Source: a virus
Lineage: Duplodnaviria > Heunggongvirae > Uroviricota > Caudoviricetes
Length of the DNA: 28,075 bases
IMG/VR virus record: IMGVR_UViG_2744054962_000004
Direction: 5' to 3' (one strand)
The translations under genes and the position numbers were made by a program. Positions 1,369 to 15,022 of this stretch are shown here, in pieces. Position 1 is the first letter of the stretch; every line of letters starts with the position of its first letter. The notes below the pieces were generated by a model. That model did not search any database. It was not told where the DNA came from and saw only the letters and a list, made by a program, of their open reading frames with translations.

Positions 1369-1444
1369 GCCGATATAGCTCAGTTGGTAGAGCAGCGCAT
1401 TCGTAATGCGAAGGTCGTAGGTTCGACTCCTATTATCGGCACTC
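1369..1444 (+). tRNA. thrW: tRNA-Thr (anticodon CGU)
   Basis: 76-nt cloverleaf: GCCGATA acceptor stem, GCTCAGTTGGTAGAGC D-arm, anticodon loop TTCGTAA (anticodon CGT), GGTTCGACTCC T-arm, TATCGGC 3' acceptor strand. The last 3 nt read CTC instead of an encoded CCA (see findings). Confidence 0.92.
1409..1442 (+). repeat. left att core: 34-bp direct repeat within the 3' half of tRNA-Thr
   Basis: cgaaggtcgtaggttcgactcctattatcggcac is identical to 14987..15020; the copies diverge immediately outside. Confidence 0.85.
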
Positions 1445-2036
1445 ACACAACAAAATCCTTTAAAAACAATATCTTAATGCGATTATCGCTCTCAAGATAC
1501 AATCTTTTTTTAAGGGATTCTATGACCAACAGTTGCCGCTATGGTTAACAGTGGCTACTCAGGGATGTTAGCACGTAGCGGCCTGTAGTTGTAAAGCTCG
1601 AACAGGTACAAAGCGTGAACAGTCCCCACGAACCGCTATCAACTCGAAGCTGATGACGCTGCCAACGTCTCTAAATCCTCCCGAAACAGATTGATCATAC
1701 GCATTTAAGCCCGATGTGCGGCCTTGTGGCTGCGTAAACAGGTGAATAGTGGTAAACGTACCTGCACACGATATGCAGGCTCTGCCAGCGCTTCGCTCAC
1801 GCTCCTGACGGTACACGAGCACCCTGATAAGGTGTGATCCATCTGACAATCTGATGATGTCGCTACGCTCCGCTTGTTGCTTGTACCACTAACGGGGCTT
1901 TATGGCTTCTATTGACTTAAATTAGATAGTTGCAAGGAAATAAACTAAAGATAATTTAAGTGTTGAGCGGTTTACTCGTATTGCTTGAGGGCAGTATCAT
2001 TACAACATTAATGGGATTTTTAAGGGACTGATGTGA

Positions 2037-2672
2037 ATGGCTGAGTATTATCCAGCGGTGTTTGAAGCAGAGGCTTTTAACTGTCCTCACTGTGGTGTTT
2101 ATGCCCGACAATTCTGGCGTAGGATGTATGGCTCTTCAAATGCGCTCCCTTCAAGAGGATCTGAGTTCCGAATGTCATCGTGCGCTCATTGTGATGAAGA
2201 CGCTTTTTGGTATCAGGGCAACATGTTGATCCCTGCGACTGGCAATGTTGAACTCCCAAATCCAGATATGCCCGATGACTGTAAGTCCGACTACATGGAA
2301 GCCAGAAGCATCATTAATCTGTCTCCTAAAGGGGCCGCTGCACTACTTCGTCTATGCCTTCAGAAGTTAATGGTCCACTTAGGCGAACCGGGGAATAACA
2401 TTAACGCTGACATCCGGTCACTCGTTCAGAAAGGACTACCTGTACGTATCCAGCAGGCAGCAGACATCTGCCGTATTGTCGGCAATCAGGCGGTCCATCC
2501 CGGAGAAATTAGCCTTGATGATGACCCGCAGTTGGCACATGGTCTCTTTAAGCTGCTGAACATTATTGTCACTGAGCAGATTACCAGACCCAAAGAGGTT
2601 GAAGAGATGTTCAATAGTATGCCTGAAAGGGCGTTGAAGGGTATTGAAAACAGAGATAAACCTAAAACTTAA
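2037..2672 (+). CDS. zinc-ribbon / DUF4145-like protein (candidate defence-associated cargo)
   Basis: 211-aa ORF with ATG start. N-terminal CPHCG...CAHC pair (CxxC-x-CxxC zinc ribbon). C-terminal region ...[37 protein letters not shown]... resembles the R-x-GN-x-aaH signature I associate with DUF4145. First gene inside the island. Confidence 0.55.
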
Positions 2673-2676
2673 AATG

Positions 2677-2692
2677 AGGGGCTTAAGCCCCT
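2677..2692. terminator. perfect 16-bp palindrome between convergent genes (bidirectional terminator candidate)
   Basis: AGGGGCTTAAGCCCCT lies in the 25-bp gap between the stop at 2670-2672 (plus-strand gene) and the stop at 2698-2700 (minus-strand gene); flanked by A/T-rich sequence. Confidence 0.5.
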
Positions 2693-2697
2693 TTAGC

Positions 2698-3486
2698 TTA
2701 TTCAGAAAACCAAATTTCTGGCCTTCTAAACTCCTTATTCTCAATAAAAAACAGAATATCTTTCCAGACTTCTTCATTTTCTTCCCAGAATTTTTGTTTT
2801 TCATTCATTGTAAGGACTTTACTATCATCTATTAACTTCTTGAGAATAGCAGGGATATCTTTATAGGGTTTTTTCCAGAAGGCATTACGAAATTCTTCAA
2901 TTTCAGCACTTGCATCCCGAACGGGTGTTAGAAGTTCAAGCTGTTTTTCTGTATCGGTAATAGGTTTATTTCCAACCCACTGATGATAGATTTGGCTAGC
3001 TTCTTCATGATGACCCCGAAGAATTGTTATTATTGTCTTTGAGAGTAACGAGCACATGTCAAAAGTAGTAAAGTAAAACCAATCGTGTTTGATTGCGGTT
3101 AATTCATCTTTCTTAACCCCTATTTGTTCAAGTTCACTCGAAATTGAAGATACTAATTTATAAAGATCTTTGTTTGATGTTGCTGTATCTAGGCGTCCGG
3201 TTCTGGAGGCTAATGAAATAGCTACTTCAGAAATAGGTAAGGAAACTTTTCTTAAACTCTCTAAAACTTTTTCAGCATCGTTAATAGTATCTCTTAATTT
3301 TGCCTCCATGCCTAAGAGCTTTATTTCATGCCATTCAAATTGAGTAAGCACCATCAACCCGAAGCCTGTTACAATGACAACAGTCCCTTCAGTTGCTCCT
3401 ATTGTCAGAGTTACAATTACACCAGCGCCTATAAGTAGCAATGCAATGAAAAACAAAAAATTCTTTATCCATTTATTTTTTAGCAT
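2698..3486 (-). CDS. membrane protein with two N-terminal TM helices and a ~200-aa soluble domain, function unknown
   Basis: 262-aa ORF with ATG start. Residues ~10-30 (FLFFIALLLIGAGVIVTLTI) and ~36-50 (VVIVTGFGLMVLTQF) are strongly hydrophobic. Markedly AT-rich compared with the proA-like core, suggesting foreign origin. Confidence 0.6.
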   Translation of the reverse strand: MLKNKWIKNFLFFIALLLIGAGVIVTLTIGATEGTVVIVTGFGLMVLTQFEWHEIKLLGMEAKLRDTINDAEKVLESLRKVSLPISEVAISLASRTGRLDTATSNKDLYKLVSSISSELEQIGVKKDELTAIKHDWFYFTTFDMCSLLSKTIITILRGHHEEASQIYHQWVGNKPITDTEKQLELLTPVRDASAEIEEFRNAFWKKPYKDIPAILKKLIDDSKVLTMNEKQKFWEENEEVWKDILFFIENKEFRRPEIWFSE

Positions 3487-3539
3487 ATCACTGTCACCAT
3501 TACGATTAAATTTGATCCAATATGAAGTAAAGTAAGTAA

Positions 3540-3749
3540 CTATTTTTCGTTCTCTGATGCCTCAAACGTCTTGGAGTGAGGGCAGGACTGTGAGCGCGTC
3601 ACCAGCGTGAACAGATAAATGTTGCTTTCGTAAGTGCAAAGCCGTTTTCCGCCCTGTAACTCTTGTTCGTCGGGGTTGCTCATGGTGATTTTTCCTGCAT
3701 GAGCCGCCAGCGGCAGCAGTGCCACAACAAATAGTAAAATTTTCTTCAT
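3540..3749 (-). CDS. small secreted protein (signal peptide MKKILLFVVALLPLAAHA), function unknown
   Basis: The track ORF 3540..3755 begins at GTG; the in-frame ATG at 3749 gives MKKILLF... with a classic signal peptide and an AHA-G cleavage context. Mature part ~50 aa with two Cys. Confidence 0.45.
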   Translation of the reverse strand: MKKILLFVVALLPLAAHAGKITMSNPDEQELQGGKRLCTYESNIYLFTLVTRSQSCPHSKTFEASENEK

Positions 3750-4729
3750 TTCCACAACCTGCCCTGTAGGTGTCCCGGCTCTTTATCCTCCAAGTTTACA
3801 TTCTCCTGTTGAAAATATCCCCGGCTCTGTTGGTGATCTGCTAGACCGTCAGCCCAGACCCTCGGTGAAAAGCGCTTTTCTTCGCCAAATATCGCTACGT
3901 GATGCCTTCAGCGACACGCCTCACTGCAACAAGCAGTGCAGTTACACAATGCTGCTTTGGGCTGAGGCAAGGGAGATAACTTGATGTTTTGAAGTGCCTC
4001 TGTTCACTAATTGTACAGTCATTTAACATATTGTATCTTGCATGTACTTGACTGGAATGGTCAGGTATTGCTTTTCGGAGCGTTGATGCGAAGCGGGGTA
4101 CACAACAGCGATTTCACCAACAGAAGGAAAGCATTCAGGAGGATTCGAGGTGAGTTCTCTTGTTCAAGGATTTTGGATGAGTTTGCCTGGTCATCAGACA
4201 ATTTCAGGTTTCAGGCCTTTGAAGCTGCCAGCGTGTCAAACCTGCTGAAAGTACAATTTCCTATTTGCCAGCAGAAAAAGAGCTACTACGGCGACGTTAC
4301 CACAACGGGTTGAAGGTCTGCCATCACCTGGTGATATTCACCGAGCCAGGCCGCCACTGTTTCGTACCATTTCCCACAACAATGTAAACAGCCACATCAA
4401 TAGCCCAGCATACGCTCTCAGCGCTGCTCTACGGCGTTATCTCCACACAATCGTGAACTGACAACGCCATGATCCACGACTTCCCATAGCGCGATAGAGG
4501 AGCCTCCAGAGGGGGGTGGTTTTGGTTTTTTGTATGATGTTTTATTTTTTATGGAAAAATGGTTCAGATAGGTGGTTGTGTTTAGCCTCATATCCACCAA
4601 CATATTTAACGCACCCAGCACTGGCGCGGCTTCGTTGTGTAGATCACGACATAACAATCACTACATCCCACAGGCGAGCCAGTGACAACAGACAGGATTT
4701 TCTATCAATTAACAGGTATTAAAGCTCTA

Positions 4730-5101
4730 TTATTTCCCGCCGAAAATCCAACCGATGATGGCACCGATTACCGCAGAGCGGGTCTCACCTGCTGCTCCTT
4801 TGAGAATGTTAATAACTGCATCGCCTGCACCAGGTGCCTGCTGTTGAAGTAAATTCAAACCACGAGGTGTTAACTTGGCGGCGGTGTCCATGTCGGTTGA
4901 AGAGATTATCTCCGTGTAACCCATATCGCTGAGAGCCTGGAGTGTGTTGCACAGCAGGTCAATCTGAGTTCTGTCTCCTCTGGGCTTCCAGCCGAAGTCT
5001 GAAAAATCGAAAGATGAGTAAGCCGGATAGTCCGCAAACAGTTTCACCAGGATTCCAGTTGCCATCTCGTTAAAGCTGTCTTTGCCTTGGACGAATTCCA
5101 T
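4730..5101 (-). CDS. hypothetical protein with a C-terminal glycine-zipper hydrophobic tail
   Basis: 123-aa ORF with ATG start and a good SD (aaggaaa). C-terminus ...GETRSAVIGAIIGWIFGGK is a GxxxG-type amphipathic/TM-like tail. Transcribed divergently from the control region at 5102..5851. Confidence 0.5.
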   Translation of the reverse strand: MEFVQGKDSFNEMATGILVKLFADYPAYSSFDFSDFGWKPRGDRTQIDLLCNTLQALSDMGYTEIISSTDMDTAAKLTPRGLNLLQQQAPGAGDAVINILKGAAGETRSAVIGAIIGWIFGGK

Positions 5102-5129
5102 AATGTTTCCTTTTGTTCACTGATTGAAC

Positions 5130-5300
5130 GAGGTTACTCAGTTACGGCAGGAAGTACCAGTCAGAAGTCATCGGTAACGAATACATATGAAAAGAAGTTT
5201 TCATCGGTAATGGTTACAGATGGGTCATCAGTAACGGTTACGCACCAATAAGATCAATATATTAAGATCAAATAAAAACCATTAAGATCTTTAAAACCTT
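5130..5300. repeat. iteron/operator-like direct repeats in the divergent control region of island 1
   Basis: TCATC(G/A)GTAA(C/T)GG occurs at ~5168, ~5201 and ~5225, with a related GGTTAC motif nearby. A(A/T)TAAGATC occurs at ~5247, ~5261 and ~5281. Confidence 0.5.
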
Positions 5301-5684
5301 AAGGTCAAAGGCAGGGTGAACTGGTGTTCACTAGTTGGTGTTAAGGAGTGATGCTTCTGTATCGCTCTGCTCTGAATGGCTCTGCCACTTCAGATATGTG
5401 TGGAAGACAAGCCGCGAGGCGCGTCAGTCAAATGTGGATCGAGCACGGCGCAGAGGAGCTTTAAACGCGACGTAACTCCCCCCTTGGAGGGGCGGCGGTC
5501 CCCCCTCAATCTCGCAAGGCGATAACGGCCCTCTGATTCTGTGGCGATGCCATGAGGCACAGCGGTCCTGTAACGCTCCCTGTCGCGTTCAGAGCGTCTT
5601 TCTCCTGTTGCTGGTATTTGTACCGCTTCGCTTAGGGCGTTGAATCTTAAGCGTCTGAGAGCGTTTTGTGATAAAGGGATTGAC

Positions 5685-5800
5685 AAAGAAAAGGTATATG
5701 TATAAAGTTGCGGGGTATTGACATAAAACACTTCCATTTCTTTATTCTTTAAGTGAGAAATCGGTTGACAAAGAAACTAATTTATAATAAACTATATATT
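5685..5800 (+). promoter_or_regulatory. promoter region for the 5852.. operon with duplicated TTGACAAAGAAA boxes
   Basis: TTGACA at 5690-5695 and 5765-5770, both followed by AAGAAA, plus a third TTGACA at ~5720; A/T-rich -10 candidates follow each. Exact -10 and start site not resolved. Confidence 0.4.
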
Positions 5801-5851
5801 ATCAACTGAGATGATTTTATGAATAAACAATAACTTAAATAGGAGAGATGC

Positions 5852-6280
5852 ATGGGGAAACCTGTTCTGTTCGATTTCTCGAACGCCACTGCCTCAGAGA
5901 TTGTCGCTGCAATCGATGCAAAAATTACCACAGCTCAAAATCTGCACGCCTTCCGCACTCGTATGGGCGGTGCCAAGAAGGCCGATAAGCTCTATCCAGC
6001 TACTCGCGAAGCACTGAACATCATTAAACGCCTGCGTCAGCAAGCGAAAGACGCAAAAATCATCCGGGATATTCTTAAACCATACTCAGCAGAGTTGGCA
6101 AAAGGCCGTGATGTTATGGAAATCATTGAACCAGTACTCTCTGCCTGGCGTGTCTATTACGCTTCTCATGGCATCGGCTTGATGAATGAACAGATCCTTC
6201 TGCTTAAGATGATTGAGTCTGGCGGTGAACTCGAAGGCATTACCGGAAAACCCATTCCAGAACTGACCACAACCGAATAA
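5852..6280 (+). CDS. hypothetical protein, first gene of the island 1 rightward operon
   Basis: 142-aa ORF with ATG start and SD AGGAGA 5 nt upstream; no recognisable motif. Confidence 0.55.
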   Translation: MGKPVLFDFSNATASEIVAAIDAKITTAQNLHAFRTRMGGAKKADKLYPATREALNIIKRLRQQAKDAKIIRDILKPYSAELAKGRDVMEIIEPVLSAWRVYYASHGIGLMNEQILLLKMIESGGELEGITGKPIPELTTTE

Positions 6281-6409
6281 CCATTCTCTGCTTTACACCG
6301 TTGGCAGCAACGCCACCAAACGAAATCGCCGCAAACACGGCTTCTTACTCCTGATCGCCATCCGCGATAGCAGGAGCGATAACTATTATGCATTCGGGGG
6401 GAACTTGAT

Positions 6410-6601
6410 ATGAATTTGAAGATTCAACAGCACGTATACGCCGGACTTTTAGAAGAAGCGAAGCGCCGGGGAACAACTGTTCCAAACCTTGCACGCGAAG
6501 TGCTAGAAATCGCCGCCCATCTTTTTGATAACGGTGAACCTTTACCCGCCTTGGGGAATATTAATGGAGATAATAATGAACAAAAGAGCGTCGCAAAATA
6601 A
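6410..6601 (+). CDS. small hypothetical protein (63 aa), possibly DNA-binding
   Basis: ATG start, weak SD. Its 3' end overlaps the start of the next gene. Function not recognisable. Confidence 0.4.
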   Translation: MNLKIQQHVYAGLLEEAKRRGTTVPNLAREVLEIAAHLFDNGEPLPALGNINGDNNEQKSVAK

Positions 6602-7376
6602 ACCAGAACTATGGATTGAAGAAGATCGCCGCCTTTTCTATGCAGATGCAATCACAATTAAGTCCACTGGTGAATGTTTCAAAGTCGAGGATAAACTTGC
6701 AAAGATCCATACCTATATGGTGGATCAATACAACAGCTACCAGGCTGATGGTAAGAGTTTCTACGAAGATCAGCGCGATATCGCGACTAAATGTAAATGC
6801 ACACCAAAAACTCTTGGCAAGTGGCTGAAAGTTCTTCAAGCACTTGGTCTACTTATCATTGATGAGAGCCAGAAGAGCCACTCTTACACGGTGCGGTCAG
6901 TAGTCAGCCAGGAACACAACTTGATTTTCAGCTATCCGAAATTGTTGAACGGCAAGCCGTCATACGACCATGAAGAGACGCTTAAACGCCTTTATGCATC
7001 TCAGGGACGTAGGAACGTAAAAAATCATCAGCCAAAAACCGAAGAGAGCGGTAAGAGTGAGCAGAAACGTGATGTGGAATCTTTCATGGTGGGATCTGCC
7101 GCGCCTGCTGCTGGAAAACCAGACGGCATACCTGCTGTGGATATTCCTGTCGATGTTGATTTATCCGGTAGTGATGATCCATCACTGAGTGATTCAAATG
7201 GGAGAAATGTCGTTGAGTTCCCGCGAAATTGTAGACCCAAACCCAGTTTTAAATTTGTAGCCCCAGATGATGACGACCACGAGGAAATCCATCAGGAGCA
7301 GGAAACCTTTATTGAGCCAGATGTTTGCCACGAACCAACGCCGGAAGAAATTGACGCTGCGGTAGCTCTTATGTGA
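6576..7376 (+). CDS. putative replication initiator / winged-helix DNA-binding protein with acidic C-terminal tail
   Basis: The track ORF begins at TTG 6525; the in-frame ATG at 6576 has SD GGAGA 5 nt upstream. Segment ...FYEDQRDIATKCKCTPKTLGKWLKVLQALGLLIIDESQKSHSYTV... is a helix-turn-helix plus wing pattern. C-terminus is strongly acidic (DDDDHEEIHQEQE...). Island 2 has a protein of the same architecture at 19503..20072. Confidence 0.55.
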   Translation: MNKRASQNKPELWIEEDRRLFYADAITIKSTGECFKVEDKLAKIHTYMVDQYNSYQADGKSFYEDQRDIATKCKCTPKTLGKWLKVLQALGLLIIDESQKSHSYTVRSVVSQEHNLIFSYPKLLNGKPSYDHEETLKRLYASQGRRNVKNHQPKTEESGKSEQKRDVESFMVGSAAPAAGKPDGIPAVDIPVDVDLSGSDDPSLSDSNGRNVVEFPRNCRPKPSFKFVAPDDDDHEEIHQEQETFIEPDVCHEPTPEEIDAAVALM

Positions 7377-7388
7377 TGGAGGAATGAA

Positions 7389-7865
7389 TTGTGTGAACAC
7401 GTAAGCGGTGTACTGACCGCAGATGAAGAACAAAAGCTATCTCGCCTTTTCTCCGTCTTGGAGAATCCGACATATAAATCCCGGTCCAAACCATCCGACT
7501 TGGAAACACAACGTAAAGCCCGTTTGCTATTGAATCGTGGGTTTTCACTGCAAATTGTCGCAAATACACTAGATCTTCCGTTTGCTGAAGTCTGGCGGCT
7601 CGCACGTCAAAAACAAGCGGTGACCTGGGCGATGATGACACCGACAGCCCGGACAGAATTTGTCCGTGAAATGTGGTCACATCGGATGCACCCGGAACAG
7701 ATCCGCAAGCGTTGCGATGGTCTGTCATACGTAAGCCTTCGATATTACCTGCATAACGCCGGGATCACTGACGCTGAAATGTTGGGTTACTACCCAGACG
7801 TGTTCGCGAATATCTGCAAGTTGCCGACAGTGAAGAAGAAGCGCACTAAGCGTAAATCCAAATAA
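7389..7865 (+). CDS. hypothetical protein with basic C-terminal tail (possible DNA-binding / small-terminase-like)
   Basis: 158-aa ORF starting at TTG 7389 with strong SD GGAGGA 5 nt upstream (no in-frame ATG near the 5' end). C-terminus KKKRTKRKSK. Confidence 0.45.
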   Translation: MCEHVSGVLTADEEQKLSRLFSVLENPTYKSRSKPSDLETQRKARLLLNRGFSLQIVANTLDLPFAEVWRLARQKQAVTWAMMTPTARTEFVREMWSHRMHPEQIRKRCDGLSYVSLRYYLHNAGITDAEMLGYYPDVFANICKLPTVKKKRTKRKSK

Positions 7866-8030
7866 TCCCACATCGGGAGCCAATGAACTTTGAAGCAATC
7901 TTTTCTTACCTGCCCGTTGTCTGGCTGGCGTATCGCTGCGTCTATGATGGGCTGATCCTCTTGCTGCGAAGCAGTGACGTTGCCCGTCATCGCCTTGCGA
8001 CAAATATCCTACTTTGGAGACTCCATAAAA

Positions 8031-8363
8031 ATGAAAAACGTAAACGACATCCGCGCCGATATTCTCGCCGCAATGCAGGCCGCTGCCGAACCGGAGAGCG
8101 GAGATCTGAATAAAAGCGCCGAGCAGGTGTTGGCTGATGCCATCGAGGGATATCTGACCGCTTCGACTGCAACAGCCAGCAAATCAGCCCCGAAAGCAAA
8201 GACCATAAAGGAAAAAGGGATCGCTCTGTGCCACCAGGCCCAAGGTTATAGCGCTAATCTGCGTCCGGTAAGTCTCATGATGAAGGCAAGTCTTGATGAG
8301 CTAACACCTGAACAACGCGCCGCGCTTGAGCGTCTGGGTTACGATATCAATCAGGGGGTGTGA
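8031..8363 (+). CDS. hypothetical protein (110 aa)
   Basis: In-frame ATG at 8031 inside the GTG-initiated track ORF 7974..8363. Stop TGA 8361-8363 overlaps the start of the next gene (TGATG), suggesting translational coupling. Confidence 0.45.
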   Translation: MKNVNDIRADILAAMQAAAEPESGDLNKSAEQVLADAIEGYLTASTATASKSAPKAKTIKEKGIALCHQAQGYSANLRPVSLMMKASLDELTPEQRAALERLGYDINQGV

Positions 8364-10510
8364 TGTCTGGTAATATTATAGTTAGCACCCTAACAAACCG
8401 AGTGGTCTGGGATGTCGATCAGACAAGTTACGGCAAAGCCTTAAAGGCTGTTAAATCCATCAAAGCTGCTCACGAGAAGCCCGCTAAAGCGCTGGAGAAG
8501 GCCCAGAAGAGGACCGCTCAGATGGAAGGCAAGGCTTCACTAGCATCGGCTAAGGCTCAGACAGCGAAGCTCCGCCAGGCTGAACAATTGTCAAAACAGC
8601 AACAGAAACAAGCTCAGATACAAGCCAAAATGGAGCGGGACGCAATCGCCCACGCCAATAAAATGACCTCATTACAGGCTCGCCAGTTATCTCAGCAGGA
8701 GCAGGCAGCACGGCAGAATGCCCGTTTAGCAGCGATTTCTGCAAAAGTGCAGGCCGCAGCCAGATCACGAGCGATGACCTACAACCCAAACATGGGCGGT
8801 CAACATTACGATCCTGGTCTTGTTTCCCGCCAGACTGACGCAATGAACCGTGGTCACGGCGCTGTTGCTGCCGACATTGCAGCCACTAAAAGGGCTATGG
8901 CCTTAGAAGAAAAGCGCCAGCGTGAGAAAGAGGCCAGTCTTAAACGCCAGAGCACTGCATACGATACTCTGCGCCGTGCCAGTTTAACTATCAGTCATAT
9001 CGAAGGCGCTAGCCTGGCTGACAAGATGAAAGCTGTGCAGGCAATCAAAGAGGCTACCAAGGGATACTCCGAGCAGCGTTACACCATCGCAGAAATGCGC
9101 CATGAACTTGCTAAAGCGACTCTGGAAACCAGGCGGCAGGCACGTATTAACCGCCAGATTGTTAAAGATAAAGCGAAAGCCAAGCGAGCAGGGCGCATCA
9201 ATGCTCAACGTCTGACCAGTGAACGTAGCGAACGTGGTTATGGTGGCCTCGCTGCTACTGGTGTAATTGCAGGTGGTTCCCTGATTGGCTCAATGGGGGT
9301 TGCTCGTGTTGGTCAGACACTACAGGGCAGTGTTGAACGCAACCAACAGATGAAGGCTTTACAGTCTCAAGGCATCTCACGTCTTGAATATGAAGCTGTG
9401 CGCGATGTTGTCGCCAACAAAACCGGCTTTAATATTTCTCCAGACAAAGCCCTTGATTTTTCTGCTGACTATAACGACAAAGTGGGCCAGTTGACGGCTA
9501 ACGGAACATGGAAGACCAACAAAAACGGTCAATCAACGTTGTCCGGTGGTGGTGAACTTGGTGACCTTATCAACGCTATTGCAGGCAAATCCAACGTTGC
9601 CACGGCAAAGCGCGTTGTTAAAGAACTCCAGGGTATCGACTTTAATCTCTTCCTTGTGTACCTCAAGCAATTGCAGAAGACTTTTAAGTTCACGGATAAA
9701 GAAACAGCCGCTTTTGCAGAAGCGATCAACGACGCAAGCAAGATCCTTCCGGCATTTGCTGATGGTGGTGAAGCTGTTCAGAAACGTATGGATGACCTCG
9801 CCCGGAATGGTTACGCCCTGAGCGAAGCACAACAGGAACAGCTAAACCGCCTAAGCGCTCTCTCTGTTGAATATTCAAGGATCAACGATTCGTTGAGTGA
9901 TATTTTCAGCTCAGGTTTTGCTGATGGGTTGGGAGAGGTTGGCAAGAACACTTCCAGCTTTAGCAAAGGTATGGCTGGCCTCGTTCCTATTATGGATAGT
10001 TTGGGGAAGGCTGTAGGCCAGGTGACTGCTGATATGTTGTTATTTGCCGGACGGGTGGGCCAACGTGTTAACGAGGGTGCAACACTTCCGGATGCAGTCT
10101 ACAACACCGTTGTGGATGATTCCGCAAACGGTGCTGCCGATTGGATTAAGGAAAAGACCGGCTTTGATCCACGTAGCATCGGTCAGACGCTTAAGCAGAT
10201 TTACCCGTGGCTAGATAGTTCAGCACCAAGCAATATCGGCTCAGGCACAGCGTATAACGATCCAGCGCTAGCGTTGAATGTTCCAGGTCTAAACTATCAA
10301 ACACCCCAGCAACCAACGTTTACGGTTCCGACAATTGATAGCATAGTTCAGCGACAGCCGATTCCTGTTGCGGTCACTGGCGAAGCTGAGATTAAACTCT
10401 CACCGCTTGATATTAACGTGAATGACGGCGCTATTAACGGTTTGATTGATACAAAACTGAGGAGCTATGAGCAGGCACAGAACAACATGATCCTTGGTAT
10501 TGCTCAATGA
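8363..10510 (+). CDS. large coiled-coil protein with Gly-rich hydrophobic segment (tape-measure-like or scaffold-like phage structural protein)
   Basis: 715 aa from ATG 8363, SD AGGGGG. N-terminal ~300 aa are K/A/Q/R-rich heptad-like sequence. Central GGLAATGVIAGGSLIGSMGV hydrophobic Gly-zipper. N-terminus and architecture parallel the 613-aa protein of island 2 (24151..25992). No Walker A motif. Confidence 0.6.
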   Translation: MSGNIIVSTLTNRVVWDVDQTSYGKALKAVKSIKAAHEKPAKALEKAQKRTAQMEGKASLASAKAQTAKLRQAEQLSKQQQKQAQIQAKMERDAIAHANKMTSLQARQLSQQEQAARQNARLAAISAKVQAAARSRAMTYNPNMGGQHYDPGLVSRQTDAMNRGHGAVAADIAATKRAMALEEKRQREKEASLKRQSTAYDTLRRASLTISHIEGASLADKMKAVQAIKEATKGYSEQRYTIAEMRHELAKATLETRRQARINRQIVKDKAKAKRAGRINAQRLTSERSERGYGGLAATGVIAGGSLIGSMGVARVGQTLQGSVERNQQMKALQSQGISRLEYEAVRDVVANKTGFNISPDKALDFSADYNDKVGQLTANGTWKTNKNGQSTLSGGGELGDLINAIAGKSNVATAKRVVKELQGIDFNLFLVYLKQLQKTFKFTDKETAAFAEAINDASKILPAFADGGEAVQKRMDDLARNGYALSEAQQEQLNRLSALSVEYSRINDSLSDIFSSGFADGLGEVGKNTSSFSKGMAGLVPIMDSLGKAVGQVTADMLLFAGRVGQRVNEGATLPDAVYNTVVDDSANGAADWIKEKTGFDPRSIGQTLKQIYPWLDSSAPSNIGSGTAYNDPALALNVPGLNYQTPQQPTFTVPTIDSIVQRQPIPVAVTGEAEIKLSPLDINVNDGAINGLIDTKLRSYEQAQNNMILGIAQ

Positions 10511-10940
10511 TGAAACAGAGGGTGGCGAATTCGTCGCCCCTATCTCAACACCGCAATGCGTATGTATCAAATTTAGCGACAAATCAAATACTTTTCGTGA
10601 AATTTATTGTAAATAATAATCATTCGTGTTAAAATAATATACAAGGTGAATTACAACAGCCAAATGTCATTCCCTTCTATAAAGCAGGCTCTGTGACACC
10701 GTGGAGCCTCTTTTGTGATGTGTCGCTTCCAGCCTCTCACTGGACGTTTGCCAACGGGCGGTACATCACAAAAGATTCGCCCTAGGGCGTACAAAGTCTG
10801 GGCCTCTGGTCTGGATTTGCCATTAAATCCGGCTCTCCTCCGGTCATCAGCCATGATGCAAACTGGCTCAGGTGTTCAGCGTTTGAGGCTCCTTACCTCT
10901 TGGATGGCGCTGATCACCTTCTCATTCCTACCAGTGAAAT

Positions 10941-10975
10941 TGACTCCGGACGACTCTCCGTCGGGTCACTTTTTT
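10941..10975 (+). terminator. candidate Rho-independent terminator inside the 570-bp intergenic gap
   Basis: tgactccggacgac / cgtcgggtca imperfect stem followed by cTTTTTT (10969-10975). Confidence 0.4.
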
Positions 10976-11078
10976 CATCGGAACAATTCGAAAGGCTGGC
11001 CCTGTTGCCGTTTACGGCTCAAGCAGGCGCTGGCCTTTTGTTTACATAGCTATGTGAAATTTAACGGGAGTTAATAAT

Positions 11079-11420
11079 ATGAAAATGGGAACAACTGAAC
11101 GTTCTTACAATGACGCGATCGCGTATGCAATCGATCCGAATTTTGACCGCAAGACTATTACCGTCGATCTGGCTGTAGAAGTCCAGCCGGGTAGTTGCAT
11201 TACCAGCGCTGGGGCTGCTTATGTCTCTGGTGATGACTGCCTGCTGGTTCTGAGCCACCACAGGGCCGAAGATGCTGCTCATATCATCGTTGCTGATCGC
11301 GGGATTTACATCAAACAAGACACCATCGTCGCTGTTATGGGCGCTACCGCTGGCGCTAATGCTATTGCCGCACTCACCAAAACGGGCGCAATCCGTACCA
11401 GCGCACCGGACGCAGAATAA
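11079..11420 (+). CDS. small phage-structural-like protein (head-decoration-like or tail-terminator-like)
   Basis: 113-aa ORF with ATG start, Ala/Gly-rich, directly upstream of the 344-aa protein. The same small/large pair recurs in island 2 (22334..22717 then 22732..23763). Assignment rests on size and order only. Confidence 0.45.
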   Translation: MKMGTTERSYNDAIAYAIDPNFDRKTITVDLAVEVQPGSCITSAGAAYVSGDDCLLVLSHHRAEDAAHIIVADRGIYIKQDTIVAVMGATAGANAIAALTKTGAIRTSAPDAE

Positions 11421-11438
11421 TAATAAGGAGAAGACAAC

Positions 11439-12473
11439 ATGGGACTATCAACCAATTTCAGCTACGCGGATTACACCAATACCTTTGTTAACATGGATGC
11501 AAAGAACACTTTGCTGTCCACGCTTAATGTTTTCAATGATCGACAGACTTCGGCTAGTCCAAAGGTCAGCCTTGATATCATTGATGAAGTAGCCCAGAAG
11601 GTGGCAAGCTCTGTTAATCGTTACGGCTCTGAGTGGTCCAGCATTCCTAAGCGTAGCTCTAGCAATCACCTTATCGAAGCTCCGCTTTATGCTTATCAGG
11701 ACCGTATTACAGCGGCAGACGTGCAACCATACCGCAAACCAGGTTCCGACCTGCAAATGTCTGTAATGGATGCGGTCACTTCTTCTGCTGTCGCAATGCA
11801 CGATAAGTACATGCGTACCCGTGAGCGGATTTTTGCTGATGCGCTTTTTCGTAATACCGTCGAAGCGACCTACACCCAGCAGCCAATCATTTCCTGGGAA
11901 GATGAATTTGGATACCAACAGGCAACCGGGACAATCAAAACCAGCGTTAGCTCTGGTGACCCACTTCGCAGCCTCGATGATGCAGTAACCGCTGCTAAAG
12001 TGCGCATGGGGGGCCTGGCTGGTCAGCTTGATGGATTTATCCTGTTTGCAGGTAGCAATGTTTATCGCGGCATTAAGTATCACCCTGATGTTCGTCAGAA
12101 TGTTCAGTTCGGTGTGCTTGATCGGGATGTTCTGTTTAATAAAGAAGTGCTTCCGGCATTCTCAACATTCATCATTGAAAATGTTCGAGTGGTGGAGGTC
12201 ACGGATCAGGCACTATACGGAATTGGTCCGGATGAATCCTTCCTGGTTCCACGCTTTAGCAAACCGCTGTCTTCGGATATTGCTCTGCCCTTCGGTTATG
12301 TGGCAACGGCTACCAGCCGCAATCTTGATCTGGCATTTGCTGATCCGGTTGATTTCCGTATCTGGAGCGTACAAGACAAGTTTAAGAACGTTGAGCTATT
12401 CGCGGAAAGCTCTATCTTGCCTGTTGTGTACCGCCCGGATTTCACTACACGACTGACGAACGACGCAGCGTAA
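11439..12473 (+). CDS. phage-structural-like protein, ~344 aa (major-capsid-E-like or major-tail-like)
   Basis: ATG start with SD AAGGAG 8 nt upstream. N-terminal region is similar to the island 2 343-aa protein (STNFSY...NTLLSTLNVFND vs STYFGV...NTLITNLDLFDV). Size and pairing with the upstream small gene mirror the lambda D/E arrangement, but fold not verified. Confidence 0.5.
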   Translation: MGLSTNFSYADYTNTFVNMDAKNTLLSTLNVFNDRQTSASPKVSLDIIDEVAQKVASSVNRYGSEWSSIPKRSSSNHLIEAPLYAYQDRITAADVQPYRKPGSDLQMSVMDAVTSSAVAMHDKYMRTRERIFADALFRNTVEATYTQQPIISWEDEFGYQQATGTIKTSVSSGDPLRSLDDAVTAAKVRMGGLAGQLDGFILFAGSNVYRGIKYHPDVRQNVQFGVLDRDVLFNKEVLPAFSTFIIENVRVVEVTDQALYGIGPDESFLVPRFSKPLSSDIALPFGYVATATSRNLDLAFADPVDFRIWSVQDKFKNVELFAESSILPVVYRPDFTTRLTNDAA

Positions 12474-12554
12474 GACAGCGGATTTTGGGGCTGACTATTT
12501 GGCCCCACCGTGAAGAATTGCCTGAAAAGGCGAGGCAAAGAAGAGGTGATTAGT

Positions 12555-12758
12555 ATGAAAATTCAATTTCAGACGAATAACGGTTTCCCGTTGCTGACTG
12601 TTGCAGACGAGCGCGTTTTAGATTTTCTGAACGTTAGCGCCGTGTGTCGGTTCCTGAAGGTTCCGCGCTCCTCGTTCATGATGAACGTTGAGCAATACGG
12701 GCTTGAAAAGGCAATCAGTGAAGCCCTGCTGAAGTTAAGAAAGAATAAAAATTGTTAA
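12555..12758 (+). CDS. small hypothetical protein (67 aa)
   Basis: In-frame ATG at 12555 with SD AAGAGG 8 nt upstream, inside the GTG-initiated track ORF 12510..12758. Confidence 0.4.
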   Translation: MKIQFQTNNGFPLLTVADERVLDFLNVSAVCRFLKVPRSSFMMNVEQYGLEKAISEALLKLRKNKNC

Positions 12759-12917
12759 TATTCAATATGTTGTTGTTTGTTGTCAAAAGAATCATTGTGT
12801 TTGTTTTTCGCGCATTTACTTGACACCCTGATGTAGATTGCGTAACCTTCACATAAAACTATTGCCTGCGATGTGTTCAGGTATTGTCGGAAACCCATCT
12901 TTAACCGAGGAGGTAAA

Positions 12918-13076
12918 ATGGCTATCACAAGTAGTATGTTTGGTCGCACCATCCTGACTGGTAAGGATGCTGAACAAATGCTCAAGCAGATGAGCAACGC
13001 TAAGCCTAACGATAAGGCTAAGCGTTCTTTAGAAAATGCTCGTCAGCTCCGCCAAAAAATGGCAAAAAAAGCATAA
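12918..13076 (+). CDS. small protein (52 aa), possible ribbon-helix-helix regulator or antitoxin partner of the downstream GNAT gene
   Basis: ATG at 12918 with excellent SD GAGGAGG 4-5 nt upstream. Predicted short strand then helices (RTILTGKDAEQMLKQM...). Lies 30 bp upstream of the GNAT-like gene. Confidence 0.5.
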   Translation: MAITSSMFGRTILTGKDAEQMLKQMSNAKPNDKAKRSLENARQLRQKMAKKA

Positions 13077-13106
13077 TAAAAACTAAGGGCAGGTTGTTAA
13101 ACGAAA

Positions 13107-13685
13107 ATGGATGATGTGTTACAACCTGACCTTCAGATTCTTCCCCTAAATCATTTCCATAACCACAAACGTTTCAGCAGTGGTTCAGAAGAATTCCAAC
13201 CTCTTAAATCTTTTCTTCAGAAAGATGCTTTATTATTTCAAGATGGTTGTATAGCTCAAACTTATGTTGTTGTTGATGACAACATGCGGAAGGATAAAGA
13301 AGAGCCTCTCGAAACATTCCCTCATAAAGTATTAGGTTATATAACGCTGACTTGCAGCCAAGTTAACCTTAAAGAATATGACTTAGGGGACTGTGTTCGT
13401 GCAAATACGTATGAGTACTTACCTGCCGTCAAGATTGCCCGTTTAGCTGTGGATGCAAAGTGTCGGACTGGCGGGATCGGTTCAATGCTGTTCGAATACG
13501 CCTTATTAATGTCATTGGATGATATTCGCCCTATGGTTGGGTGCAGGTTCTTGATAACCGATGCTAAGAGAAGTGCCATGGATTTTTATTATAAAAAAGG
13601 GATGGAGCTTCTTGATACGCAAGAAAATCAAGAGGCTGACCACCCCATAATGTTCATCGATCTTTTCACATTACTTGAAAACTGA
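13107..13685 (+). CDS. GNAT-family acetyltransferase, candidate GNAT-type toxin (TacT/AtaT-like)
   Basis: 192-aa ORF. ...LPAVKIARLAVDAKCRTGGIGSMLFEYAL... matches the GNAT acetyl-CoA-binding motif A (R-x-x-G-x-G after a beta strand). Preceded by a small ORF in toxin-antitoxin-like order. 3' end overlaps the integrase 3' end by 20 bp (convergent). Confidence 0.6.
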   Translation: MDDVLQPDLQILPLNHFHNHKRFSSGSEEFQPLKSFLQKDALLFQDGCIAQTYVVVDDNMRKDKEEPLETFPHKVLGYITLTCSQVNLKEYDLGDCVRANTYEYLPAVKIARLAVDAKCRTGGIGSMLFEYALLMSLDDIRPMVGCRFLITDAKRSAMDFYYKKGMELLDTQENQEADHPIMFIDLFTLLEN

Positions 13686-14871
13686 TCATCTCCACATACC
13701 CCGATAGCTCCCTCATCCCCGCGCCAGCGCTGTACGTTCTGAAACTCTCCGTTTTGCCTCGCTCATGGCCCACGATTAGGGCGATCCTGTCTTCTGGTAC
13801 ACCATGCCGATCAAGCTGGCTGATAAACATTCCTCGCAGACTATGAAACACCTTCCGCTCCGTGCCTTTCTCACCCAACGCTTTACGTTTAGCCCGTGTA
13901 AATCGCTGTGTATGCCACGTTGAGCGCTTGCCGTCTGCACGTTCGGTGATGCTGGCATGGTAGAACAGAAAGCCGTTGTGGTTGTTCTGGATGAGGTTTT
14001 TAATCAGTTTCGTCAATCGGCTATGAATTGGAACCAGGCGAGCCGCATTGCGTGTCTTACCCTCCGTCACATCGAAACACCATACCCCCTCAACGGTTTT
14101 GATATTGCTGATTTGCAGAGAGCAGATTTCGTTAAGGCGCATACCGCTATACATTCCCACTATCGCAACGGCTTTCATCTCTTCATCAAGCATCGCATAC
14201 ACCTTAGCCAGTTCGTCACCGCTAAAGGGTTCGTAGCTTTCTCGATCATGGCGCACGTCCAGTTTGTGGCCCGTGAATACATTGGCTTTCGGTGCGTCGT
14301 GATAGCGGTTTTGGGCTTGTGCCACTAGTTGGGACAGACAGCCAAGATAATTCGCCAGTGTCTGGCTGGCTTTCTCCTGCTTGGCGCTGTCTAACCAATC
14401 GGTGACCATAGTCCTGTTGATTTCCTGCAACTGGAAATCCTTACGCCGGAAATGAGCCGTGAAGACCTCCACCGCCTTAATGTACTTGCTCAGGGTAGAC
14501 AGCTTGCGCCTGTCACTGTGTTGGACAATAAATTCATCCCGCAGTTGAACAAGGGAGGGACACACACGAGCCGTGGCGAAGTCTATCCCATTATTTTGGC
14601 TTACATGCTGGTTGATAGAGCGCAGTTCCACCAGGACGCGATCGACACTGTTACGTTGGGGTTTTGGCTTGAGTCGGTCTCTGATAGCAAAAAATTCGTG
14701 CATGACTTTGTCACGAATGATTCGGGCTTCCCTGATATCTGCCGTGCCAGTTGTACGCATGAATGCTGTTCGATTCCCAAAAAGGGAACGCATATAAGGC
14801 GGAATAGTGACCTTGACGGAGTACACCGAAGAGTTTTCTTTAACAAGGTACGCATTAGGCTTGTATTTCAT
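13666..14871 (-). CDS. tyrosine recombinase / phage integrase (island 1)
   Basis: 401-aa ORF with ATG start. Box I region ...GMRLNEI..., then ...KVFHSLR..., ...GHERGKTESFRTY... consistent with the R...HxxR...Y catalytic signature. Sits next to the att repeat and shares a 49-aa identical block with the island 2 integrase. Confidence 0.9.
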   Translation of the reverse strand: MKYKPNAYLVKENSSVYSVKVTIPPYMRSLFGNRTAFMRTTGTADIREARIIRDKVMHEFFAIRDRLKPKPQRNSVDRVLVELRSINQHVSQNNGIDFATARVCPSLVQLRDEFIVQHSDRRKLSTLSKYIKAVEVFTAHFRRKDFQLQEINRTMVTDWLDSAKQEKASQTLANYLGCLSQLVAQAQNRYHDAPKANVFTGHKLDVRHDRESYEPFSGDELAKVYAMLDEEMKAVAIVGMYSGMRLNEICSLQISNIKTVEGVWCFDVTEGKTRNAARLVPIHSRLTKLIKNLIQNNHNGFLFYHASITERADGKRSTWHTQRFTRAKRKALGEKGTERKVFHSLRGMFISQLDRHGVPEDRIALIVGHERGKTESFRTYSAGAGMRELSGYVEMISFQVM

Positions 14872-14986
14872 CTTTCCCCCGATCTAATATTCAGGGGCAA
14901 CTGTGATCAGTTGTGTCAGTTTTGCCTTTCAGGAGCAGCGCATACGGTTCGAAGAATCAATGACTTGTGAAACACGTCATTGGAAT

Positions 14987-15022
14987 CGAAGGTCGTAGGT
15001 TCGACTCCTATTATCGGCACCA
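14987..15022 (+). repeat. junction att core: displaced 3' fragment of tRNA-Thr (with CCA) between island 1 and island 2
   Basis: cgaaggtcgtaggttcgactcctattatcggcacCA: identical to tRNA positions 41-74, followed by an intact CCA end; no 5' half present, so not a functional tRNA. Confidence 0.85.

Follow-up and report, generated by a model that had tools for sequence, protein, structure and literature searches.

A GNAT related to tRNA-acetylating toxins and its small basic partner as a putative toxin-antitoxin-type cassette of a tRNA-Thr island

Two adjacent genes of the window, by which we mean the entire 28,075-nucleotide stretch of viral DNA that was analysed, form a conserved mobile cassette. 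The upstream gene encodes a small basic protein, and the downstream gene a GNAT acetyltransferase, a divergent relative of the toxins that acetylate aminoacyl-tRNA. Judged from sequence comparisons and a structure model, the most likely reading of the cassette is that of a non-canonical toxin-antitoxin-type module, in which we have moderate confidence, and the two genes may represent a novel type of toxin-antitoxin pair. At present, GNAT toxins are defined by their DUF1778 antitoxins, and DUF4065 is the one known alternative.

TA-like bicistronic GNAT loci that fall outside the DUF1778 clade, or 'true TA clade', were reported by Bikmetov et al. (2022), who left their function open (PMC9177977). 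These loci have short upstream ORFs without a predictable DNA-binding domain (PMC9177977). The window pair, a relative of the GNAT toxins preceded by a short domain-less ORF, fits this description exactly. The study gives no family definition, partner family or test for the loci (PMC9177977), and the accessions of the window pair were not found in its supplements. In the literature, no named system that combines a GNAT with a small basic partner of this type was found. The locus gives a concrete definition to such GNATs with short domain-less upstream ORFs (the class of PMC9177977). With about 330 clusters at 50% identity, the partner proteins make up a coherent family that is tied to one GNAT family, and E. 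coli offers a native copy of the pair for direct cloning.

The cassette, its expression signals and its island

The small partner gene occupies positions 12918-13076 of the plus strand (52 aa), and the GNAT gene positions 13107-13685 of the same strand (192 aa, pI 4.9). The stop codon of the small ORF is separated from the GNAT start by 30 nt, and both ORFs use one reading frame, with three stops between them. In identical E. coli copies, both are annotated as coding sequences by RefSeq/PGAP, the small one as WP_163444586.1 ('hypothetical protein') and the GNAT as WP_061092843.1. Motif A of the GNAT reads RTGGIGS from R120, and follows the segment VKIARLAVD that begins at V108. The coordinates, the ORFs, motif A, the Shine-Dalgarno sequence and the 30-bp spacing of the original prediction can all be found in the sequence. 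The 52-aa ORF is real, far beyond chance, since its homologues adjoin the GNAT in 91 of 98 occurrences, the family has 327 cluster representatives, and the enterobacterial copies are under purifying selection (pairwise dN/dS 0.05-0.20).

The cassette has a putative promoter of its own, formed by a -35-like hexamer TTGACA (12820-12825, plus strand) and, 17 nt after it, a -10-like hexamer TAACCT (12843-12848, plus strand) that matches the consensus at only 3 of 6 positions. The TTGAC is invariant upstream of six enterobacterial copies. In the aligned upstream regions, the -10 block, GATTGCGTAACCT in the window, is also present in the Proteus copy, as GATTGCGTAATCT. A consensus scan missed this putative promoter because of its weak -10. 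Outside TTGAC, the upstream regions of the six aligned copies diverge. The Klebsiella and Yersinia versions contain a palindrome, TGACG-N4-5-CGTCA.

Translation signals differ between the two genes. The small ORF has a strong Shine-Dalgarno sequence, GAGGAGG (12907-12913, plus strand), 4 nt before the ATG, and its GGAGG is kept in all six aligned relatives. Ahead of the GNAT, the intergenic sequences of eight enterobacterial copies contain no canonical Shine-Dalgarno sequence at normal spacing. They share a conserved motif AGGTTGT (13091-13097, plus strand), located 10-16 nt before the GNAT start. The strong signal on the small ORF and the lack of a normally spaced one on the GNAT suggest a lower translation efficiency for the GNAT than for its partner. 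A candidate RNA hairpin within the small ORF (z = -3.55) was rejected, as it is not kept in four relatives. In an Rfam search, a tRNA was the sole match.

The GNAT gene is convergent with a tyrosine integrase gene (integrase 1, positions 13666-14871, minus strand; Pfam Phage_integrase 7.5e-19, phrog_1 3.4e-37), and the 3' ends overlap by 20 nt; an overlap at this site had been noticed from the sequence alone. The attR site (14987-15020, plus strand) repeats 34 nt from the 3' end of tRNA-Thr in direct orientation, and the attL copy is located at 1409-1442. Based on these repeats, island 1 spans positions of about 1443-15020 (13.6 kb, at the tRNA-Thr gene thrW), and the cassette is its last cargo before the integrase. 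It had been proposed that the module inserted at the tail of the integrase, in view of a difference to the C-terminus of integrase 2. This proposal finds no support, because a Yersinia island has the same arrangement of small ORF, GNAT and convergent integrase, with an overlap of 26 nt. The Yersinia integrase is 41% identical and has a similar C-terminal tail (...GYIEIVNFTVM, compared to ...GYVEMISFQVM in the window). Integrase 1 aligns with integrase 2 up to the last residues of integrase 1, and integrase 2 is merely longer, by about 21 residues.

The GNAT and its resemblance to tRNA-acetylating toxins

Generic Pfam GNAT models score below their gathering cut-offs (23.7 versus 27, 20.7 versus 23.6, and 15.5 versus 20.7 bits), and the assignment of the window GNAT therefore rests on a family profile and a structure model. 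The profile was built from 25 family members and searched against PDB sequences. Its top 15 matches are AtaT, KacT, TacT1-3, AtaT2 and GmvT (E 2.4e-15 to 8.1e-10), and cover nearly the full length. The first non-toxin match is GNA1 (E 2.5e-6), and streptothricin acetyltransferase, at E 0.0075, ranks far below the toxins. The AF2 model of the window GNAT (pLDDT 90.8, pTM 0.87) leads to a similar result. In a Foldseek search of the PDB, tRNA-acetylating toxins account for every one of the top 38 matches (E 3.9e-14 to 2.1e-9, TM 0.77-0.86), followed by N-terminal acetyltransferases at about 3e-7 and TM 0.5-0.6. Among plasmid-borne proteins that do not belong to the family, the closest (24-35% identity) are GNATs with annotated DUF1778 genes beside them. 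By profile and predicted fold, the window GNAT falls with the aminoacyl-tRNA-acetylating toxins AtaT, KacT, TacT, ItaT and GmvT, and the two approaches thus agree with the original assignment to the toxin type.

The best profile matches, at E 2.4e-15 to 4e-14, are the toxins of the clade A systems AtaR-AtaT and KacA-KacT (6GTS, 6AJM, 7CHD, 5ZGN), and AtaT and KacT are also the best structural matches (TM about 0.8). Sequence identity to them is only about 21-25%. According to the profile alignment, L27, F30, Y85, R95, G108 and Y144 of AtaT correspond to L33, F36, Y102, R112, G125 and Y161 of the window GNAT, which are all invariant among the 25 family members. In AtaT, each of these residues is required for, or strongly contributes to, toxicity, and Y85, R95, F30 and L27 belong to the dimer gate and aminoacyl pocket (PMC7595197). 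The tyrosine, arginine and phenylalanine of this set gate the active site across the dimer. G125 is the glycine of the acetyl-CoA loop, and Y161 the equivalent of the catalytic tyrosine. AtaRT, KacAT and the window pair have these residues in common, as well as a gene order with the small gene first.

The surface for the tRNA is different. In AtaT, the acceptor stem is contacted by H34, R37 and R40, which are replaced by D40, L43 and D46 in the window GNAT, so the basic surface is not conserved. The acceptor-stem residues K77, K79, K81 and K82 of AtaT are replaced by G94, C96, R98 and A99; S76-K79 of AtaT are not conserved outside clade A (PMC7595197). Unlike AtaT, for which a fragment has a pI of 9.3, the window GNAT is acidic (pI 4.9, net charge -10), without the basic residues of helices alpha1 and alpha3 for the acceptor stem, and the members of its family range from acidic to neutral (median pI 5.9). 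The enterobacterial branch, including the window GNAT, also has an insertion of roughly 15 residues around positions 58-72. TacA-TacT (TacAT1-3 of Salmonella and TacAT of M. tuberculosis) and GmvAT, which are likewise found in mobile or accessory DNA, share the toxin-type GNAT fold (TM 0.80-0.85), and differ from the window pair in the same way as AtaRT. The specificity of TacT for Gly-tRNA cannot be inferred for the window GNAT.

The small partner and its linkage to the GNAT

The window partner, a protein of 52 aa with a net charge of +8 and a pI of 10.75, belongs to a family of 50-77 aa proteins (median pI 10.4, net charge +8 in about 60 aa) with the consensus MAIKSSTFGRVxLSGxDAxxFxxQ...KP...A.....G. 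The N-terminus is nearly invariably M-(A/S/G)-(I/V), with one member that begins MP, and there are no invariant lysines. A conserved segment comprises F8, L13, D17-A18 and F21. The family profile finds 327 cluster representatives at E<=1e-3 (1.84 billion proteins searched, clusters at 50% identity). Pfam detects nothing in the window partner or in any of 39 family members, and in particular no RHH, DUF1778 or DUF4065 domain, although genuine DUF1778 proteins carry PF08681 in the same database. DUF1778 antitoxins combine an RHH domain at the N-terminus with a neutralising segment at the C-terminus. In the PDB, the partner profile matches no antitoxin chain at E<=10. A search of PADLOC-DB v2 gave no match at E<=1 for the GNAT, the partner or an upstream 82-aa ORF.

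The partner, shorter than DUF1778 antitoxins, had been suspected to make the locus a variant pair. It is indeed not a typical DUF1778 protein, but neither does it look like a shortened one. In an hhalign comparison with AtaR, 7 columns aligned at the RHH strand, with P=0.038. An RHH reading of the partner N-terminus finds no support. With 109 sequences of the AtaR, KacA and TacA3 type, the result was P=0.17 over 39 columns, which is not significant. The best register places partner residues 6-44 on AtaR residues 49-88, the toxin-binding C-terminus of AtaR, and is plausible, at P=0.17. The Pfam and PDB profile results and the non-significant hhalign scores rule against a truncated DUF1778 protein. 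Partner homologues of 90-118 aa, candidates for an N-terminal RHH domain, turned out to be miscalled upstream starts, with non-conserved extensions. The window partner lacks an RHH/DUF1778 domain, and its similarity to AtaR is not significant. The VcaA-VcaT system (DUF4065/Panacea-GNAT, clade C) pairs a GNAT toxin with a non-DUF1778 antitoxin (PMC9177977). The window partner differs from VcaA by the absence of DUF4065 or any other Pfam domain, and by belonging to a family of 50-77 aa instead of full-size Panacea proteins. From these comparisons, the partner is a coherent, separate and previously unannotated family.

The linkage to the GNAT was counted for 98 GNAT occurrences in fetched loci across Proteobacteria. 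The partner adjoins the GNAT in 91 of them, directly upstream and on the same strand in 87 and convergent in 4, from two lineages. In most cases, the gaps range from -17 to +30 nt, and overlaps of 4 or 8 nt are frequent. The toxin-antitoxin-like order recognised at the outset is thus a general feature, with the small gene first and often translationally coupled. In the reciprocal approach, starting from the small protein, the adjoining gene again belongs to the same GNAT family. One natural partner-GNAT fusion (P0285) was found; in its fold, predicted with GNAT alignment rows only, residues 1-32 of the partner moiety stay below a pLDDT of 50, and the model is uninformative on the interface.

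The pair is spread over Alpha-, Beta-, Gamma- and Zetaproteobacteria. Island ends beside integrases harbour the cassette in E. coli, Yersinia and Devosia. A K139-like Vibrio phage carries it as ORF14e/14d, next to a gene for an Ogr/Delta-type regulator, and in Nitrosococcus it is part of a prophage. The Mesorhizobium copy adjoins an IS element, a Methylococcaceae genome has the cassette in an island with DarTG, ParDE, VapBC and Phd, and in Proteus a bare cassette is found in the core chromosome. In Rahnella, an XRE-like ORF is present upstream of the cassette. Among complete E. coli genomes, 22 of 5,426 contain the cassette, with an intact GNAT in all 22, and among sequenced phages, it occurs in 1 of 50,697 records. 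In one metagenome-assembled genome (L008), the GNAT ORF is intact and the partner is reduced to a 3' remnant. GNAT-inactivating alleles with an intact partner comprise two E. coli frameshifts and the widespread Q5* allele of Proteus. They give no evidence of toxicity, since their number is no greater than expected by chance from the 3.6:1 ratio of gene lengths.

A possible mechanism and its alternatives

In the mechanism that we propose, the GNAT would act as a dimer and use acetyl-CoA to acetylate the alpha-amino group of an anionic substrate, either a charged tRNA or something closely related, and would thereby stop translation. The strong ribosome-binding site of the small basic protein would ensure its production in excess, and it would bind to the acidic GNAT and hold it inactive. 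As it lacks a ribbon-helix-helix domain, it is probably not an operon repressor, unlike TacA, AtaR and KacA. The cassette would stabilise, or defend, the 13.6-kb island at tRNA-Thr. Antitoxins of the PaaA2-ParE2 type are small, lack a DNA-binding domain and only neutralise the toxin, and transcriptional control is left to another protein. PaaA2 is a possible functional analogy for the RHH-less partner, but its toxin comes from an unrelated family, and the sequences have nothing in common. Systems of the PaaA2-ParE2 type also have a third regulatory gene, which is not evident at the window cassette. If the window GNAT is toxic and can be neutralised by its partner, the latter would represent a new antitoxin family. 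A toxic GNAT without the usual basic tRNA-binding surface would also bear on the question of substrate choice. If it is not toxic, the locus would show the fate of toxin-type GNATs outside the toxin-antitoxin lifestyle.

The acidic GNAT, the missing basic tRNA-stem residues of AtaT and the convergent genes in two lineages speak against a simple toxin-antitoxin reading. Further counterpoints to the toxin-antitoxin explanation are the lack of DUF1778 homology in the partner, the intact GNAT of L008 beside a partner remnant, the natural fusion and the empty PADLOC search. One alternative is a non-toxin enzyme with a dedicated small partner, which we consider possible but doubtful. The partner would then be either an acetylation substrate or a nucleic-acid-binding recruiting subunit, and the cassette would have a mobile regulatory or accessory function. 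The complementary charges of the two families (median pI 5.9 and 10.4) are in line with this alternative, and a basic subunit could supply the tRNA binding for a GNAT that lacks the basic residues of AtaT. In the substrate version, acetylation would take place at the N-terminal Ala or Ser after Met removal, or at a lysine. The nearly invariant N-terminus agrees with this idea, but there is no invariant lysine and one member begins MP. The linkage that persists even when the genes are convergent, and the natural fusion, would fit an obligate complex, and the GNAT is intact in each of the 22 cassette-bearing complete genomes of E. coli. 'Different physiological functions' are also allowed for such loci by Bikmetov et al. 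(PMC9177977). However, the GNAT keeps the equivalents of Y85, R95 and F30, three residues that belong specifically to the dimeric aminoacyl-tRNA active site of AtaT. Moreover, the contexts are mobile and of the addiction or defence type, including the toxin-antitoxin-rich island, and the small-gene-first order with overlapping stop and start is typical of type II toxin-antitoxin pairs. It is unlikely, in particular, that the partner, instead of an inhibitor, is the physiological substrate or an obligatory nucleic-acid-binding subunit of an acidic, toxin-derived GNAT that has been re-purposed, as a two-subunit acetyltransferase or as a pair under the control of protein acetylation, for an activity and a target other than aminoacyl-tRNA poisoning. 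The reading as a standard enzyme of housekeeping or resistance (an acetyltransferase like RimI, or one that acts on aminoglycosides or streptothricin) with a fortuitous upstream ORF has next to nothing in its favour beyond weak generic GNAT and RimI matches. The TIGR01575 rimI model scores 14.5 bits (E 0.029) against a cut-off of 86.4, no curated resistance acetyltransferase model of NCBIfam matches at E<=1, and curated cut-offs are all missed by a wide margin. The profile and fold side with the toxins, the small ORF is conserved across Proteobacteria under purifying selection, and few complete E. coli genomes have the cassette (22 of 5,426). The housekeeping reading, which the original prediction had named as its possible refutation, is thus effectively refuted by cut-offs, profile, fold, linkage and dN/dS.

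Alternatively, the roles could be reversed, in a type VII-like manner. The small basic protein would then do the harm, for example through contacts with nucleic acid or the ribosome, and the GNAT would neutralise it by acetylation. Enzymatic antitoxins are an established class (HepT/MntA, TglT/TakA), and the very basic partner and acidic GNAT would be suitable for such a system. The finding that GNAT-null alleles are not obviously rarer than gene length predicts is neutral in this respect. Nevertheless, reversed roles are very improbable, and hard to reconcile with the persistence of three independent GNAT-null alleles, including Proteus Q5*, beside an intact and well-expressed-looking small ORF. 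The closest relatives of the GNAT are also toxins.

Finally, the cassette could be a phage or satellite 'moron' with another target, such as a protein or nucleic acid of the host or of a competing phage, for anti-defence, host takeover or superinfection exclusion, and the partner its specificity factor or regulator instead of an antitoxin. The location at prophage and island ends beside integrases would be compatible with this, as would the copy beside the Ogr/Delta-type gene in the K139-like Vibrio phage, and the match of the GNAT to PHROG 1758 ('acetyltransferase', 1.9e-23). Phage GNATs with unexpected nucleic-acid chemistry are known, such as Mom of phage Mu, which uses Gly-tRNA and depends on an HTH-like insertion for activity (PMC13219725). 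The moron alternative appears rather improbable, since the cassette also occurs alone in the Proteus core chromosome and in a toxin-antitoxin island, and in just one of the 50,697 phage records. A BFVD fold search with the GNAT model found generic GNAT matches only, without close viral structural relatives, and the top 50 PDB Foldseek matches do not include Mom. The HTH-like insertion of Mom (about residues 175-209) is missing from the compact 192-aa model of the window GNAT, and the acetyl-CoA loop is intact.

The cassette and its island

The host DNA of the window is E. coli chromosome, in the order proA, tRNA-Thr (1369-1442), foreign DNA. A 34-nt repeat of the 3' end of this tRNA gene (thrW), present at 1409-1442 and 14987-15020, is the att repeat that divides two tandem islands. 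Island 1 therefore spans some 13.6 kb, and the cassette is its final cargo before the integrase. The arrangement was confirmed as originally described: a small ORF (52 aa, 12918-13076, + strand) with a GAGGAGG Shine-Dalgarno sequence at 12907-12913 precedes the GNAT ORF (192 aa, 13107-13685, + strand), and the 3' end of the latter overlaps by 20 nt with the integrase 1 gene on the opposite strand (13666-14871, - strand). PGAP annotates both cassette genes in 22 E. coli genomes, calling the first a 'hypothetical protein' and the second a 'GNAT family N-acetyltransferase'.

The related island 2 follows in tandem, from 15021 to the window end. Each island is about 13 kb long, with an integrase gene at its far end, a lambda-E-type gene for the major capsid protein, a gene for a tape-measure-like protein (716 aa and 613 aa in the two islands) and one that resembles replication initiators (DUF6945/HTH_36). 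Both are satellite-like in appearance, as their structural genes would not suffice for a phage. The two capsid proteins share only 24% identity. At the position equivalent to the cassette, island 2 carries the gene for the 613-aa tape-measure-like protein and a Dit-like tail gene, so the segment between capsid and integrase genes is variable.

The idea that the cassette had inserted at the 3' end of integrase 1 finds no support. An island of the same type in Yersinia enterocolitica encodes capsid E, a 609-aa tape-measure-like protein, the small ORF, the GNAT and a convergent integrase (26-nt overlap), whose identity to integrase 1 is 41% and whose C-terminal tail is of the same kind. As overlap and tail are shared despite this low integrase identity, the GNAT/integrase overlap is old and does not point to recent insertion. 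Integrases 1 and 2 are 46% identical overall, and 100% identical in residues 298-347 (HNGFLFYHASITERADGKRSTWHTQRFTRAKRKALGEKGTERKVFHSLR), encoded on the - strand at 13831-13980 and 27020-27169. Recent gene conversion of this block is ruled out, since its DNA is only about 83% identical, with differences that are all synonymous; the residues are under extreme local constraint.

Island 1 may have a second cargo locus at its tRNA-proximal end, made up of a DUF4145 gene (2037-2672, + strand; Pfam 1.1e-13, phrog_1305 'DNA binding protein' 1.2e-27) and a convergent 262-aa ORF (2698-3486, - strand) that matched no family. Another small ORF, between the capsid gene and the cassette (12510-12758; 67 aa in the PGAP version), had no match in Pfam, PHROG or PADLOC. 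Its middle part looks HTH-like by eye, and given the closeness to the integrase gene, it may encode the island excisionase or a regulator.

Similarity of the GNAT to tRNA-acetylating toxins

The window GNAT scored below the gathering threshold of every generic Pfam GNAT family, and a PADLOC search gave no match. PHROG 1758 'acetyltransferase' was matched at 1.9e-23, and the only acetyltransferases ranked in a single-sequence PDB search were toxin-type GNATs. A family profile built from 25 aligned homologues (38-82% identity) matched AtaT, KacT, TacT1, TacT2, TacT3, AtaT2 and GmvT in the PDB near full length (E 2.4e-15 to 8.1e-10), the first non-toxin match being GNA1 (2.5e-6). AlphaFold2 modelled the window GNAT with high confidence (pLDDT 90.8, pTM 0.87). 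The best 38 fold matches of this model in the PDB are all aminoacyl-tRNA-acetylating toxins, including ItaT (E 3.9e-14 to 2.1e-9, TM 0.77-0.86), followed after a clear gap by N-terminal acetyltransferases. For RimI, the score was 14.5 bits, with the cut-off at 86.4. Profile and predicted fold thus bear out the proposed toxin type, and a housekeeping or resistance acetyltransferase was rejected. The nearest plasmid-borne relatives that do not belong to the family (24-35% identity) are GNATs with DUF1778 genes annotated as their neighbours.

In AtaT, G108D blocks acetyl-CoA binding, Y144 is the catalytic residue, and Y85 forms a hydrogen bond with R95 of the other subunit, which stacks on F30 to gate the active site; mutation at any of these residues reduces or abolishes toxicity (PMC7595197). 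AtaT L27, F30, Y85, R95, G108 and Y144 align with L33, F36, Y102, R112, G125 and Y161 of the window GNAT, and all six are invariant in its family. In contrast, the basic acceptor-stem residues of AtaT lack conservation: in place of H34, R37 and R40 the window GNAT has D40, L43 and D46, and in place of K77, K79, K81 and K82 it has G94, C96, R98 and A99. The window GNAT has a pI of 4.9 (net charge -10), whereas the AtaT fragment has a pI of 9.3; the family median is 5.9. The family has invariant basic residues of its own (K34, K109, R112, R147, K154), and an anionic substrate therefore stays plausible, although tRNA would not necessarily be bound as in AtaT.

The small partner and its expression

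An ORF starting MAIKSSTFGRVELSGKDA lies directly upstream of the GNAT in 80 loci from GTDB genomes fetched through the GNAT. In a six-frame HMM search of 93 loci, the small gene was upstream on the same strand for 87 of 98 GNAT hits and convergent downstream for 4 (two lineages), while 3 hits were at contig edges. The remaining 4 lacked it; three of these are degraded GNATs, and in the fourth (locus L008) the GNAT is intact and the partner reduced to a 3' remnant. Intergenic gaps are mostly -17 to +30 nt, with frequent 4- or 8-nt overlaps. The reverse search from the small protein found the same GNAT adjoining in Mesorhizobium and Nitrosococcus. In the convergent lineages (L068:4539-4718; L089:6543-6740, also L090 and L091), the small gene abuts the GNAT 3' end on the opposite strand, in L089 with a 4-nt overlap; linkage is retained there without co-transcription.

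The partner family comprises 327 representatives at 50% clustering, with a typical length of 60-65 aa and a strongly basic character (median pI 10.4, net charge +8). Among enterobacterial copies, dN/dS is 0.05-0.20. Named members are 'hypothetical' in every source. Longer entries proved to be miscalled starts, except for one natural partner-GNAT fusion. This metagenomic protein (P0285, 243 aa) has the small protein as residues 1-61, a linker of about 15 residues and the GNAT in a single chain; either a genuine fusion or a lost stop codon could explain it. In its structure model, the partner part was not placed confidently.

The partner had been suspected to form a variant pair, being shorter than typical DUF1778 antitoxins, and the profile comparisons agree with this. 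None of 39 members had a Pfam domain, and no PDB relative was found. In hhalign, the partner profile matched AtaR (identical to PDB 6AJM chain C) over just 7 columns, on the RHH strand (P=0.038). In the best local alignment against 109 AtaR/KacA/TacA3-type sequences, partner residues 6-44 fell on AtaR 49-88 (P=0.17), the toxin-binding tail crystallised with AtaT; this register is suggestive, but not evidence. We treat the partner as a new family rather than a cut-down DUF1778 protein.

Upstream, TTGAC at 12820 is invariant in six enterobacterial regions, and the spacer/-10 block GATTGCGTAAYCT is common to the E. coli and Proteus copies. When the Klebsiella sp., Mixta, Cedecea and Yersinia regions (L002, L003, L004, L082) were aligned with window 12740-12925, a TGACG-N4-5-CGTCA palindrome was found over the -35 TTGAC, a candidate operator that some regulator may bind; this palindrome is absent from the copies in E. 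coli and Proteus. The Shine-Dalgarno sequence is strong for the small ORF and missing at normal spacing for the GNAT, which has a conserved AGGTTGT 10-16 nt before its start. The small protein is therefore probably made in excess, which would be compatible with an antitoxin without proving that it is one. Within the small ORF, a 12-nt inverted repeat (12996-13026) is predicted to form a stable RNA hairpin (-19.3 kcal/mol, z = -3.55). As Yersinia, Proteus, Klebsiella sp. and Cedecea do not share this hairpin, it is probably incidental.

Possible roles and distribution

A 'true TA clade' of DUF1778-linked GNATs, together with a validated DUF4065-linked clade, has been described by Bikmetov et al. 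2022 (PMC9177977). Related acetyltransferases outside that clade occur in TA-like bicistronic loci with short upstream ORFs that lack DNA-binding domains, and may either be paired with antitoxins yet to be identified or have taken on different functions (PMC9177977). The present family matches this description, and our literature search found no paper naming or testing it. The best explanation, that the cassette is a non-canonical toxin/antitoxin-type system with a new partner family, has, in our estimate, an even chance of being right. The main rival, which is less probable, is a non-toxic enzyme with the small protein as its dedicated substrate or subunit; this reading is favoured by the inverted charges of the pair and by the absence of the tRNA-stem residues.

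Reversed roles, with a toxic small protein and the GNAT as antitoxin, are disfavoured, because GNAT-null alleles persist beside a small ORF that is intact. The E. coli assemblies L094 and L095 have differing 1-nt GNAT deletions, at CDS positions 116 and 38, and a widespread Proteus lineage (L097-L099) has CAA>TAA at GNAT codon 5, the small ORF being intact in all. The product of the Proteus stop allele is indexed in 60 collection blocks; only 7 contigs with the intact allele were read.

The cassette is present in 22 of 5,426 complete E. coli genomes, in identical copies. In Proteus, it stands alone between lysS and a chemoreceptor gene. It just follows the integrase in a Devosia prophage, is located in a prophage in Nitrosococcus, adjoins an IS element in Mesorhizobium, and corresponds to ORF14e/14d of Vibrio phage Ch457, beside an Ogr/Delta-type regulator. 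In a Methylococcaceae MAG (L100:1-10100), it is part of a dense TA run with DarT/Macro, a PDDEXK protein, ParD-like/ParE-like, VapB/PIN, a second PIN and Phd/YefM. In Rahnella, it is found on one megaplasmid, whose gene table omits the small ORF. A 127-aa XRE-type HTH ORF there (L093:3486-3869) overlaps the small-ORF start by 64 nt, and might add a third gene, with a regulatory role, to the cassette of this lineage.
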